Source of the DNA: an uncultured Ignavibacteriales bacterium
GTDB taxonomy: Bacteria > Zixibacteria > MSB-5A5 > GN15 > FEB-12
Direction: 5' to 3'
Assembly (NCBI GenBank): GCA_964612145.1
Contig: CAZTBP010000006.1
Location: forward strand, 47,044-111,043
DNA length: 64,000 nucleotides
Shown here: piece by piece, positions 47,407 through 50,668 of the stretch
Layout of the letters: each line of letters starts with the position of its first letter
How positions within the stretch are numbered: the first letter of the stretch is position 1
The notes under the pieces: generated by a model
Told to the model about the DNA's origin: nothing
The model's input: only the letters and a program-made list of their open reading frames with translations
Databases searched by the model: none
Position numbers and translations under genes: made by a program

Positions 47407-47455
47407 GTTTACCCTACGGCTCCAACTCGTAATCTGCAGCAATTTACTGCCAAAA
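47407..47455 (-). promoter_or_regulatory. Copy A of ~50-bp motif upstream of protease gene
   Basis: 34/50 identical columns (2 gaps, manual alignment) with 50620-50668. Confidence 0.55.
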
Positions 47456-47535
47456 GTGTGCAAAAAAGTGCCTCTTTACTTTCGTTGCAAACTGTCGGAA
47501 ACATCCCGCATCTCCACTTTTAAGCTGCTCAATCA

Positions 47536-47548
47536 TAAGGCTTTGATT
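47536..47548 (-). promoter_or_regulatory. IHF-binding site
   Basis: AATCAA-AGCC-TTA matches WATCAANNNNTTR, just upstream of a sigma54 promoter. Confidence 0.55.
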
Positions 47549-47573
47549 ATATCCGGCTCGTTTAAGATGGCGA

Positions 47574-47589
47574 TGGCCCGATATTTGCT
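47574..47589 (+). promoter_or_regulatory. sigma54 (-24/-12) promoter
   Basis: TGGCCCGATATTTGCT, GG-N10-GC spacing. Confidence 0.7.
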
Positions 47590-47649
47590 CATGCTATTGC
47601 CTGAACAATTAAAGTCCCTCTAAAACGGGACAGAGAGTAGATTTTTAAA

Positions 47650-47946
47650 ATGTTGCACAAGCACACAACCAGACGACATCCTTTGAAATGGATTCTCGCA
47701 GGGATATTGTTCGTCCTGGTACTCACGGTCACCTTTGATGACGCTTACGGAGTCTGGGTGCCAAGTTCGGGGGACGGACAAGAGCAAGCCGGCAACGCTG
47801 AGCCGGTAGATCAACAGTTTGATATAAATACAACTCCAATAGAAAGCCAGTCAACCGCTCCGCAGATTCCGGAGCCGGCAACCCTTATTTTACTCGGGGC
47901 CGGTCTGGCCGGATGGCAGGCTCGACGCTATTTCAAGACCAGGTAA
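47650..47946 (+). CDS. Minimal PEP-CTERM protein
   Basis: Signal peptide, short spacer, IPEPATLILLGAGLAGWQARRYFKTR. Confidence 0.85.
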   Translation: MLHKHTTRRHPLKWILAGILFVLVLTVTFDDAYGVWVPSSGDGQEQAGNAEPVDQQFDINTTPIESQSTAPQIPEPATLILLGAGLAGWQARRYFKTR

Positions 47947-47972
47947 AGAAATTCCCCAACCTCTACCCTTCC

Positions 47973-48012
47973 ACGCCTTTTGAGTCCCTCCCCTCAAAAG
48001 GCGTTCTTTTTT
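47973..48012 (+). terminator. Rho-independent terminator
   Basis: ACGCCTTTTGAG-loop-CTCAAAAGGCGT-TCTTTTTT. Confidence 0.8.
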
Positions 48013-48022
48013 CCAGAAACCT

Positions 48023-49378
48023 TCACACCCGCCCCACTCTGGGCCCGACCTGCGGGATATCCCGCCGTCGAAGCGGCCACAGGGCCAGCGCCAGGGCCAT
48101 CAGGCTGTCACATTCATTGTTATCGTCCCACCTCGCCCCACGCAGCTCGTCCTCAAACGACCAGGTCTTCCCCACGCCGTCCGGCAGTTCATACCGTGGA
48201 TACGCGATCTTCCCCCTGGCATGAAACAACTCGACATTAGTCAGCAGCTCCGCCTTGTTTGGCGCCGAAAAGATAACCGATTCCGGATTGTACGCGCCGA
48301 GCTGACTCACTACGACATCCCCCAGACCGGTCGCATCGACCACCAGCCTGCCGGGATACCGGACCTGTTGCTGCTCGATATCGTGTATTATCACTGTCCA
48401 GTCGATGTGCCGAAGCCGCTTTAGCTCAACAACGGTCGCCATCCCGCCTTTCAGCGCCACCGTTACTCCGACTGTCGCCGTCCGCTTTCGAGCCAGATCC
48501 CAGCCGGTCAGATAGCGCACTTCCGGTCCCGGCTCGTTTCGAAGCACGTCCGCCGCCGATTCCGAATATGTTTCAAGCGCCTGATCGATATCACGGCCGG
48601 GAATTACTTCCCCGCCACTGTCAACGAACTGCCCCATAATGTTCTGCTTGACTCGACGGTCCGTGAAATATGTGAGCCGCTCCCGCAGGAAGTCCTTCGA
48701 GATCGCCGTATTCTCCCGGCTGTCTCCCGATTGAAAATACCCCGGCCGCCGCCCGGCCTGAATCTCCCGCGCCCGACGATAGAACCAGTTGCGCCCGCAG
48801 GGAGTCGAGACCAGATCGAGAACCCCCTCCCGATCGGCTAAGCGCATGAGAATAACTTCCTCGACCACGTACTCCGGATCGCTCTCAAACGCAACCTCAT
48901 CGAATATGAAAAGGTCGTAGTCATTCCCGAGAAGATACTCACCCTTGTTTTGCGTCGAACGGGCTTCAATGACACTTCCATTGGCAAACCGAATTGTCGG
49001 AAAAGGCGTCCGCACAATCGACTCAACCAGCTCACTCAGCACCGCCGACTGCCGCACAAACCGGACCACCTGATTGAAAATGATACTGGCCTGGTCCTGC
49101 GTAATCGCCGCCGTAACCATCCGGTACCGCCCGCAGTTGTCGAACCGTCGGTTCCGCGGGCGGTACACCGCATGATGCAGCAGCTTCACCGCGCACACAA
49201 ACGACTTCCCCCACCGATTACCGGTCACCAGCAGGTTCTCCCGCCGCGACGATCCCTTCAGCCATCGAAGCTGACCCGGATGCAGCCGGACACCGAGCAC
49301 CCGGTGGGCGAAGTATTCATAGTCATCAAAGGACCGCCCCCAGTCGGTGATGCCGATCGTGGCGTCTATAGCAGACAT
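48023..49378 (-). CDS. Phage terminase large subunit
   Basis: LHPGQ Q-motif, GNRWGKS Walker A, FIFDEVA Walker B, STP coupling motif, nuclease GWDLA / VDATGLG / ECDSLMALALA. Confidence 0.9.
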   Translation of the reverse strand: MSAIDATIGITDWGRSFDDYEYFAHRVLGVRLHPGQLRWLKGSSRRENLLVTGNRWGKSFVCAVKLLHHAVYRPRNRRFDNCGRYRMVTAAITQDQASIIFNQVVRFVRQSAVLSELVESIVRTPFPTIRFANGSVIEARSTQNKGEYLLGNDYDLFIFDEVAFESDPEYVVEEVILMRLADREGVLDLVSTPCGRNWFYRRAREIQAGRRPGYFQSGDSRENTAISKDFLRERLTYFTDRRVKQNIMGQFVDSGGEVIPGRDIDQALETYSESAADVLRNEPGPEVRYLTGWDLARKRTATVGVTVALKGGMATVVELKRLRHIDWTVIIHDIEQQQVRYPGRLVVDATGLGDVVVSQLGAYNPESVIFSAPNKAELLTNVELFHARGKIAYPRYELPDGVGKTWSFEDELRGARWDDNNECDSLMALALALWPLRRRDIPQVGPRVGRV

Positions 49379-50595
49379 CCGGCCCTGTCGCGTGCGGTCT
49401 GTTTGTCAATCAGACCGGCCTCATACAGCTTCACCAGATCGGCGATCTTCGTTGACACATTCTCAACCTCCTGGTTCTCACGGTAAGTCAGGCTGTTGTC
49501 AAAGCGGAAAACCGGTTTGGCCTCGATACCGGCCAGCGCCAGATCAATCCTCGCCAGCCATTCGAACAACCGCGCTATCTCCGCCTGGACCGTTCGCACC
49601 TGCCGCATGACCATATCGAACTTGAACGCCGACCAGGTTGTGGTCGCCCCGTACGAGTAACCCAGCAAGAACGGTGACAGGTTAGTCCCGGCACAAATCT
49701 CCTCGACCATCGCCCGGTGATTGAAAAACCAGCTGTTGGTCACCGACCGGTTTGAGTCCGGTCCGATATGCTGAATCTCCACATTGTCCCACGTAACAGG
49801 GTTGTCATCGACATCGCATGACCGGATCATCGATACCGTCTTGTCGAAATAGCCGTTGATCCGATCGATATAGGCGTCATCCGACTCCCCGGACAACCGA
49901 TCCGGTGGTGTGATCTTCACATGCAGCCGATGAAACCCCGCGTTGTGGCTTGTCCGACGCATATCATCGACCAGCTGTTGCTCGATATAGGACACAAACG
50001 GGACTGATCCCAGCACCGACCGACCCAGCGGCGCGTTCACGCCGCCGGTCAGCGGAATGTAGTAGAAATCCGGCCGGTCGAGATTGACCGAACCATGATC
50101 AGTCTCGTACTGAAATCTTCGCTTACCCCGATCCACGTCGAGCGTAACGCCTGCGGAATCGATCGGGATAAACCGGTCCACCCTCGAGCCATCCCGACTC
50201 ACTGTCACAAATCCGCCAAACAGCCCGTCGCGAAACAGCCCGGTCGCAACATCGGTCGCAAAGTCCGCCCCACCGGCCTGCTCGCCCGGCAGCGGCGTAT
50301 AGACCCGCTCCAGGAGTGCATTCAGCCGCTCCTGTGCCCGTTCGCCCTCACGCTTCGATCTTGACTCCCCGACCTCAAATGTCCCCGGCGCGGCCGTCAA
50401 CCGCCCCCATGTCCAGATACACGATGACACCACCGGTACCGTCTCGGTGAGAAACCGGTAAAGCAGCGTGCGGTACCGTCCGGTGCAGAAATCCTGTTCG
50501 CTGAGCCGAAGCATCCGGCGCATCCGCTCGGTCGTTCGCAACGCCGCTGGCGGTGGCGTGAACGAACCTACAGTTAATGATTTTGAGTCCGACAT
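49366..50595 (-). CDS. Phage portal protein
   Basis: PVVSSCI, FIPIDS, PLGRSVL wing motif, EEICAGTNLSPFLLG, QVRTVQ..I...E stem; overlaps TerL start. Confidence 0.75.
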   Translation of the reverse strand: MSDSKSLTVGSFTPPPAALRTTERMRRMLRLSEQDFCTGRYRTLLYRFLTETVPVVSSCIWTWGRLTAAPGTFEVGESRSKREGERAQERLNALLERVYTPLPGEQAGGADFATDVATGLFRDGLFGGFVTVSRDGSRVDRFIPIDSAGVTLDVDRGKRRFQYETDHGSVNLDRPDFYYIPLTGGVNAPLGRSVLGSVPFVSYIEQQLVDDMRRTSHNAGFHRLHVKITPPDRLSGESDDAYIDRINGYFDKTVSMIRSCDVDDNPVTWDNVEIQHIGPDSNRSVTNSWFFNHRAMVEEICAGTNLSPFLLGYSYGATTTWSAFKFDMVMRQVRTVQAEIARLFEWLARIDLALAGIEAKPVFRFDNSLTYRENQEVENVSTKIADLVKLYEAGLIDKQTARDRAGCLL

Positions 50596-50619
50596 ACGAT
50601 CCTCCTGTTTTGTAACTGG

Positions 50620-50668
50620 GTCTGCCCCAGGCTCCGGTCACGAAGTCACCACCAAATTGCTGGCAAAA
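50620..50668 (-). promoter_or_regulatory. Copy B of ~50-bp motif upstream of portal gene
   Basis: Aligns with 47407-47455, similar distance to start codon. Confidence 0.55.

Follow-up and report, generated by a model that had tools for sequence, protein, structure and literature searches.

We describe here a short DNA element that stands before both halves of a split set of phage-type head genes in a bacterial chromosome. The stretch analyzed, hereafter the window, comprises 64,000 nt from an uncultured Ignavibacteriales bacterium placed by GTDB in the Zixibacteria (MSB-5A5; GN15; FEB-12), and corresponds to positions 47,044–111,043 of the forward strand of contig CAZTBP010000006.1 in assembly GCA_964612145.1. 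The element is an array with a conserved core of 30 nt and the consensus GCAAAATCGCT-ACAAAATTGGT-GGTGATTyC, located on the minus strand before the portal gene (50643–50672) and before a gene encoding a prohead protease fusion (47430–47459). It is a real, conserved and module-specific regulatory element: it occurs upstream of orthologues of both genes in about 50–60 species, the majority of the 80 Zixibacterial species compared, as an earlier reading of this DNA from the letters alone (the sequence-only reading) had expected of a functional site, its boxes are helically phased, its position relative to the start codons is fixed, and its two copies co-evolve within genomes. Very probably it is a dedicated cis-element of transcription shared by the two gene blocks. 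Our specific reading, to which we assign a rough probability of 0.45, is that it serves as a promoter/operator bound by a module-specific factor that recognizes tandem units, and most likely one regulator turns on both halves of the split gene set.

The two copies and the genes behind them

The genes and arrays concerned are as follows.

49366–50595, minus strand: portal gene, first in transcription unit 1 (PHROG 3753/30703)
48023–49378, minus strand: large terminase (TerL) gene (Terminase_6N and PHROG 2)
45899–47389, minus strand: prohead serine protease domain fused to a ligase-like nucleotidyltransferase/OB domain, 496 aa, first in transcription unit 2
42830–45132, minus strand: rest of the head block, consisting of three small genes (104, 131 and 139 aa) and the major capsid protein gene (PHROG 3922, synteny)
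50643–50672, minus strand: core array before the portal gene, TCAATTTTGCCAGCAATTTGGTGGTGACTT, in 11-nt units ATCAATTTTGC / CAGCAATTTGG / TGGTGACTTCG, ending 47 nt before the ATG at 50595
47430–47459, minus strand: core array before the protease fusion gene, ACACTTTTGGCAGTAAATTGCTGCAGATTA, in units CACACTTTTGG / CAGTAAATTGC / TGCAGATTACG, ending 40 nt before the ATG at 47389

The sequence-only reading had pointed out two copies of a motif of about 50 bp in the same orientation, matching at 34 of 50 columns, and we could reproduce both sequences and their coordinates (47407–47455 and 50620–50668). The copies lie on the minus strand, with 17 nt left to the protease start codon (ATG at 47389) and 24 nt to that of the portal gene (ATG at 50595). 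Aligned globally, the 49-mers have 34 identical columns of 50 and a score of 16, against −6.1 ± 4.0 in dinucleotide shuffles (0 of 3000 as high), and a local alignment between the 100-nt upstream regions of the two genes has a score of 17, compared with 8.5 ± 1.5 (0 of 3000); the similarity noticed in that reading therefore exceeds the shuffled background. When whole intergenic regions are compared, the best local alignment is the plus-strand pair of sigma-54 promoters belonging to the PEP-CTERM genes described below, not the motif. A degenerate 19-mer derived from both copies has no further occurrence in the window. We also constructed a weight matrix of 30 nt, using nothing but the orthologous sites of other species and leaving out the window, and it ranks the portal (21.4 bits) and protease (21.0 bits) sites second and third among about 128,000 window positions. 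Before 45129, where no convincing third copy had been seen, the best score of this matrix is below 0 bits.

The portal and terminase genes overlap by 13 nt and are therefore regarded as one transcription unit. The protease fusion has no match in Pfam or NCBIfam, and its domains were assigned from an AlphaFold model built with 35 homologues as input (predicted local distance difference test score, pLDDT, 81.6). The N-terminal 200 residues match prohead serine proteases (best BFVD E-value 1.4e-11), so that the label "protease" given previously is right for this domain, and the C-terminal part matches ATP-dependent ligases and capping enzymes in the PDB (E-values 1e-5 to 1e-6). The N-terminal part also carries a conserved CxxC...CxH motif. 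The major capsid protein gene occupies 42830–43927 (PHROG 3922, E-value 3e-66), and the small module genes have no match in NCBIfam or Pfam.

Conservation across Zixibacteria

For the orthologue set we scanned one genome per species; relatives of the portal protein were present in 114 species, and 80 loci (L001–L080) were fetched. An alignment of the 120 nt upstream of 54 protease-gene orthologues contains the conserved block TTGCGCAAAATCGCTGG-AAAATTGCTGGTGATT, with GCAA on its 5' side and a GGTAAA box and the Shine-Dalgarno sequence on its 3' side. A hidden Markov model (HMM) was built from these protease-gene regions only, without the window, and was searched against all loci and the window (2.9 Mb). 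Among its 21 hits other than protease-gene sites, 13 fall in the short stretches before portal genes, and these stretches amount to about 0.5% of the sequence searched. When Gibbs sampling was applied to the portal upstream regions by themselves, the top motif was CAAAATCGCTACAAAATCGGTGGTGATTTC, and its columns correlate with those of the protease matrix at a mean of 0.79 in the expected register and about 0 elsewhere. The core is thus kept at both genes among species whose portal proteins are 47–62% identical, with the flanks randomized.

This comparison also delimits the element. Within the motif of about 50 bp proposed earlier, the 30 nt farthest from the gene are conserved, whereas the promoter-proximal part of about 23 nt (GGAGCC..GGG.A.AC) is found only in the two window copies; its similarity is specific to this lineage. 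The parts adjoining the core are listed below.

47460–47474, minus strand: extension of the protease-gene array only, GGCAC-TTTTT-TGC in the window and GCAA-N5-TTGC in the orthologue consensus, with high information content (47–54 species)
47408–47413, minus strand: GGTAAA box between the array and the protease-gene Shine-Dalgarno sequence, at a fixed offset from the array in orthologues
47407–47429, minus strand: promoter-proximal motif half, protease copy, CGAGTTGGAGCCGTAGGGTAAAC, resembling 50620–50642 and, beyond GGTAAA, unconserved in orthologues
50620–50642, minus strand: promoter-proximal motif half, portal copy, CGTGACCGGAGCCTGGGGCAGAC, within a stretch about 13 nt longer than in orthologues

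The extension forms, together with unit 1, the palindrome TTGCGCAA in most species, and the GGTAAA box may be a −10-like or leader element.

Specificity and further copies

In 1.37 Mb around the module, 7 non-module hits were obtained at 16 bits or more, against 5 in shuffled sequences; the 90 hits at portal and protease genes are partly so by construction, because the matrix was trained on those sites. A second set of independent Zixibacterial loci (0.9 Mb) contains no match above 17.6 bits. Across 2.3 Mb of Zixibacterial DNA, strong arrays are almost absent outside the module.

Neither a housekeeping nor a sigma-54 promoter accounts for the array. Other genes of the window have classical promoters of the TTGACA-N17-TATAAT type, and a scan with the sigma-70 consensus gave no hit at either array. 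A housekeeping promoter was rejected on two further grounds: the best-conserved position of the first box has C instead of the T needed in a −10 hexamer, and strong arrays are restricted to the module. In sigma-54 promoters (TGGCACG-N4-TTGCW), GG and GC are exactly 10 nt apart. The protease extension has the look of such a promoter, reading TGGCAG-N..-TTGC, TGGCAA-N..-TTGC or GGCAC-N6-TGC, and resembles the form TGGCAC-N5-TTGC; its GG and GC are, however, 9 nt apart and not 10, in the window and in orthologues, neither the portal copy nor the core that it shares with the protease copy has a GG/GC pair, and the true sigma-54 promoters are on the other strand. The possibility of a structured cis-regulatory RNA was also dismissed, since Rfam gave no relevant match at E ≤ 1 for the upstream regions and RNAalifold found 0 conserved pairs in 34-sequence alignments of both of them. 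Of the alternatives left open by the sequence-only reading, a dedicated promoter or regulator site or else a leader RNA, the former is supported by the module specificity and co-evolution of the element and the latter is not.

Two further matches in the window were checked individually. The first of these is the best match in the window.

34484–34513, minus strand: array copy GCAATATCGGTGGGCAATCGCCGGTGATTT, 23.7 bits, 42 nt before the ATG of a response regulator-GAF-HD-GYP gene (32927–34441)

The gene behind it is of the cyclic di-GMP (c-di-GMP) phosphodiesterase type. The array is absent upstream of 71 orthologues of this response regulator, and we therefore take this copy to have been recruited to the putative regulon in this lineage. 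At about 50–90 nt before the response-regulator genes of other species (L081–L160), we noticed two conserved boxes, GCGCAAtwwTTAtACAAA followed about 33 nt downstream by CCGATAG, and the latter resembles the −10 box of sigma-28. The second match (44940–44969, minus strand, 15.7 bits) lies inside the 104-aa gene, before the 131-aa gene. Orthologues have it as well, but it overlies the conserved codons for LDKKL..FEVIL, and is probably a coding coincidence rather than a promoter.

Architecture of the array and co-evolution of its copies

Written in 11-mers the array reads CGCAAAATCGC / TGGCAAATCGG / TGGTGATTCCG. In both gene sets the self-similarity at a lag of 11 is 0.345–0.35, while other lags and control DNA give about 0.25, and the array accordingly has the direct-repeat spacing (10–11 bp from centre to centre) of tandem transcription-factor sites. 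The spacing from the first to the last box is rigid, the two best-conserved blocks being 20 nt apart from start to start, with secondary peaks of box spacing at 9, 20 and 31–32 nt. Orientation is constant across species, and the distance from the array end to the ATG is 33 nt at portal genes (interquartile range 32–34) and 40.5 nt at protease genes (37–43). In the window the corresponding distances are 47 and 40 nt.

The two copies of one genome resemble each other more than copies of different genomes do. Among the 43 genomes in which both arrays are present, the portal copy and the protease copy of one genome are identical at 15.9 of 30 positions, against 14.3 of 30 between genomes (0 of 20,000 permutations), and this likeness persists in the columns of low information, with no such effect in the upstream flank. 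For example, CAAAATCGCTAC is the form in most species, and both window copies have the derived CAnTTTTGnCAG in its place; the array variant CAnTTTTG of this genome corresponds to CAAAATCG elsewhere. Such likeness is what a shared, drifting trans-acting factor would produce, and gene conversion could give rise to it as well.

The split operon and the PEP-CTERM genes

The head module is interrupted on the opposite strand by two PEP-CTERM genes (47650–47946 and 50897–51646) and by a lipoprotein-like gene of 238 aa (45180–45896). Both PEP-CTERM genes are divergent from the capsid genes and have canonical sigma-54 promoters.

47574–47589, plus strand: sigma-54 promoter of the 98-aa PEP-CTERM gene (47650–47946), TGGCCCGATATTTGCT, 114 nt from the edge of the protease array
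50820–50835, plus strand: sigma-54 promoter of the 249-aa PEP-CTERM gene (50897–51646), TGGCACGACTATTGCT, 147 nt from the portal array

Throughout the phylum, a PEP-CTERM gene on the opposite strand splits the capsid operon. The protease array faces a sigma-54 promoter at 103–120 nt in 28 of the 31 species with a detectable PEP-CTERM gene, and at a looser threshold (8–10 of 12 consensus positions) such a promoter was found at 110–116 nt in 15 species where tblastn missed the gene. Because the promoter has been kept at a fixed distance even in the latter species, we consider the interruption between terminase and protease genes to be ancestral. Between the protease array and this promoter, nearer the promoter, there is a conserved palindrome GTAAC..TGT..ACA..GTTAC. 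At the portal gene, a sigma-54-like promoter is present within 300 nt for only 12 of 53 arrays, and this partner, often absent in other species, is dispensable. We also considered whether the two interruptions represent a duplicated PEP-CTERM cassette, and rejected this because the two genes share nothing beyond the sorting signal. The fixed pairing of array and sigma-54/PEP-CTERM promoters points to a possible connection, which was unexpected, between the making of capsids and the biology of the cell surface.

A second split is rarer. In most species, namely those without the lipoprotein-like gene, the capsid block comes directly after the protease gene with a median gap of 43 nt; the 238-aa opposite-strand gene separates the two in 13 cases, the window included. 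A third array (23–24 bits) is present before the 104-aa gene in 2 of these 13 split cases (L076:15300–15329 and L052:15247–15276) and in none of 28 unsplit species. The sequence-only reading had proposed selection for co-expression of the split operon, and several observations agree with it: the element precedes both blocks, the split is found throughout the phylum, the copies co-evolve, and the third copy follows the further split in two species. The element may be taken as a test case in which a split operon would keep co-expression by duplicating its promoter.

Between the 98-aa PEP-CTERM gene and the 3' end of the terminase gene we noticed a GC-rich plus-strand hairpin of 12 bp followed by a T-run (47973–48004). 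It is likely to be the terminator of the PEP-CTERM gene; on the terminase strand it is without a T-run.

How the array may act

In the reading that we prefer, the three helically phased 11-bp units (approximately GCAAAATCGCT, ACAAAATTGGT and GGTGATTyC) directly upstream of the 5' leaders of the two transcription units, portal-terminase and protease-...-major capsid protein, would be occupied by a single module-specific factor, bound along one helical face of these repeats and covering the −35 to −10 region. The bound factor would recruit or gate RNA polymerase, the transcript would start a few bases past GGTGATT, and the resulting leaders of 25–35 nt would carry a Shine-Dalgarno sequence. In this way the halves of the head operon, long separated by the opposite-strand sigma-54-driven PEP-CTERM gene, would be fired together. 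The role in transcription initiation, the position of the start and the choice of a tandem-binding regulator rather than a sigma factor are what we infer. The boxes of OmpR/PhoB-family regulators (Pho, PhoP and ArcA) are tandem direct repeats with a period of 10–11 bp that cover or adjoin the −35 region and always point the same way relative to the gene. The array shares this direct-repeat architecture and would likewise overlap −35, but its unit CAAAAT matches none of these boxes, its third unit is divergent, and no gene for a regulator of this family is linked to the module.

Several points weigh against this proposal. The third unit, GGTGATT, resembles units 1 and 2 weakly, and a two-box reading of sigma type fits it equally; the rigid box spacing likewise fits both a tandem-binding factor and a sigma factor. 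Gene conversion could account for part of the likeness of copies within genomes, and the third arrays in 2 of 13 split cases and 0 of 28 unsplit species are anecdotal as support. Among the genes of the 64-kb window there is no winged-helix or other candidate for the cognate regulator, which could be encoded elsewhere in the genome. The conserved 202-aa neighbour of the module was considered for this role and rejected, as it has a signal peptide, is secreted and has no relative in the PDB. No RNA run contains this organism, only DNA runs of a microbial-mat metagenome matching its sequence.

The alternative that survives best, though we think it unlikely, is a bipartite core promoter of an alternative sigma factor, with a −35-like GCAAAA(T) and a −10-like GGTGAT(T) 15–16 nt apart, in which case the module would be on when the sigma factor is made or released. 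Promoters of sigma-28 (FliA) read TAAA-N15-GCCGATAA, and the two-box geometry of the array, CAAA-N15-CTGGTGAT, is almost identical to this, as would be its use as the promoter of a specialized regulon. The rigid start-to-start distance of the blocks, a distance to the ATG that suits a start just past GGTGATT, and the module specificity of the element among differing housekeeping-type promoters in the window are all in keeping with a sigma factor. The supposed spacer is, however, itself conserved and repeats unit 1 at 11 bp, which is unusual for a sigma spacer, and no sigma gene is linked to the module within the 64-kb window. The −10 box GGTGAT also differs from the CCGATA of sigma-28, and a better CCGATA box is conserved at the response-regulator orthologues, not at the capsid genes. 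To our knowledge, the boxes match no sigma consensus (sigma-28, sigma-H, extracytoplasmic function (ECF) or sigma-70). On balance we favour the tandem-binding regulator over this core promoter.

It is improbable that the array acts at the RNA level, as a part of the 5' leader (a binding site for a protein or the ribosome, or an antitermination signal like put or QBE) downstream of an unrecognized promoter. The unmapped start site and the conserved GGTAAA box 3' of the array leave room for such a signal, a sigma-70-like hexamer pair is found further upstream of the protease gene in the window (47573 to 47546), and known gene transfer agents use antitermination (PMC11150451; bioRxiv 10.1101/2024.11.20.624540). 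That hexamer pair is not conserved, however, and upstream of the portal arrays no promoter-like block is conserved, the information content there being about 0; the RNAalifold and Rfam results given above also speak against a leader element.

Still less probable is an upstream activator sequence for an enhancer-binding protein that serves the divergent sigma-54 promoters of the PEP-CTERM genes. Both window copies do face such a promoter, at a distance which for the protease gene is fixed in the species examined, and the window contains a sigma-54 activator gene (18080–19537). Against this, most portal arrays have no such promoter within 300 nt, and the number falls to 0 when the neighbour is the TPR or the 202-aa gene, where the arrays nevertheless keep their 33-nt distance to the ATG. 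Moreover, the array is a direct repeat in fixed orientation and not a palindrome, and the sigma-54 promoter next to the protease gene has its own, closer palindrome.

Finally, a functionless similarity, due to chance or left by duplication or gene conversion between the intergenic regions, is hardly credible: the promoter-proximal motif half, confined to this genome, could be a conversion tract, but the core is conserved at both genes across divergent species with randomized flanks and a fixed position.

Comparison with the control of gene transfer agents

The gene transfer agent of Rhodobacter capsulatus has a GafA-dependent promoter, and the CtrA site at gafA is reported to keep its position relative to the start codon (PMC6363796, PMC9638019). 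The likeness to the present case, a dedicated regulator site upstream of a domesticated cluster of phage structural genes, is an analogy of logic and not of parts. The GafA promoter is unrelated in sequence to the array, and in the present case each of two blocks of a split operon is preceded by a copy of the same element; the hosts differ as well, being an uncultured phylum of the FCB group here and Alphaproteobacteria for GafA. In the systems of GafYZ (Caulobacter) and BrrG (Bartonella), gene transfer agent clusters are controlled by activation plus antitermination (PMC11150451; bioRxiv 10.1101/2024.11.20.624540). These share with our proposal a single regulator that integrates the expression of separated phage-derived loci, and their promoter-proximal binding with a downstream −10-like element is a possible parallel to the array and the GGTAAA box. 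Unlike them, the genes studied here have no long attenuating leader or terminator, the leaders being at most about 40 nt, and no Q-like protein was identified. Dedicated regulators are a key to why cells keep domesticated phage capsids, a question opened by GafA, GafYZ and BrrG for the gene transfer agents of alphaproteobacteria, and the array can be used both as a bait for its regulator and as a probe for unlinked members of the regulon in complete genomes.

A candidate domesticated capsid module

Homologues of the portal protein number at least 447, with 54–68% identity; nearly all are labelled Zixibacteria, and many are on contigs of Mb size. Across the 80 loci the gene order is PD-(D/E)XK nuclease, 202-aa secreted protein, TPR protein, (PEP-CTERM), portal, terminase, (PEP-CTERM), protease fusion, the 104-, 131- and 139-aa genes, capsid protein and four more genes. 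The far side of the module is also syntenic, with a DUF7451 gene, lipoyl synthase, the response regulator-GAF-HD-GYP gene and an M50 peptidase. None of the 2.9 million viral contigs of IMG/VR encodes a member of the portal family, and no free phage relatives were found there. Because gene order and cellular flanks are conserved and the portal is absent from IMG/VR, we regard the module as an old, vertically inherited, domesticated element. A head and packaging cluster that is chromosomally fixed and vertically inherited, as in gene transfer agents, is therefore present here. The 254-aa gene has a weak, tail-tube-like match (E-value 7e-6) that falls below the cut-off, and no tape measure, baseplate or lysis genes were recognized.

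In the searchable literature we found no paper on gene transfer agents or capsid modules in Zixibacteria, and the module appears to be undescribed. A wider interpretation, which we regard as doubtful, is that the array marks in cis a domesticated capsid system that extends through the phylum and has not been described before, either a new one like a gene transfer agent or another cellular device based on capsids, in which two operons under a dedicated, co-evolving regulator are interleaved with sigma-54-driven PEP-CTERM genes (linked to the cell surface or exopolysaccharide) and are wired, in this genome, to a c-di-GMP-type response regulator. If this is true, capsid production would be coupled to the surface or biofilm state.

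As observations in their own right, the whole module (38051–50595 in the window) with its cellular flanks is syntenic in at least 80 species-level Zixibacterial genomes, with capsid proteins 67–77% identical. The names Thermoplasmata archaeon, Deferrimicrobium, Calditrichota or Ignavibacteriales are attached to some of the loci with this module (L004, L011, L032, L063 and several "Ignavibacteriales" records). Mis-binning or mislabelling of metagenome-assembled genomes probably explains these names, not transfer.

Other features of the window

The remaining genes of the window are those of an ordinary chromosome and include a tRNA synthetase, ScpA/B, glycosyltransferases and efflux genes. Two phage-derived genes without the array lie about 20–30 kb from the capsid module: a Peptidase_S74 gene (tail-fibre/endosialidase chaperone; 19796–21544, minus strand) with a classical promoter of sigma-70 type, and an HNH endonuclease gene (17035–17580, minus strand). 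The sigma-54 activator gene at 18080–19537 (minus strand) encodes an NtrC-type response regulator, and about 40 nt upstream of it there is a perfect palindrome, TTTGCGC-A-GCGCAAA (19578–19592), which resembles TTGCGCAA and may be an autoregulatory or enhancer site.

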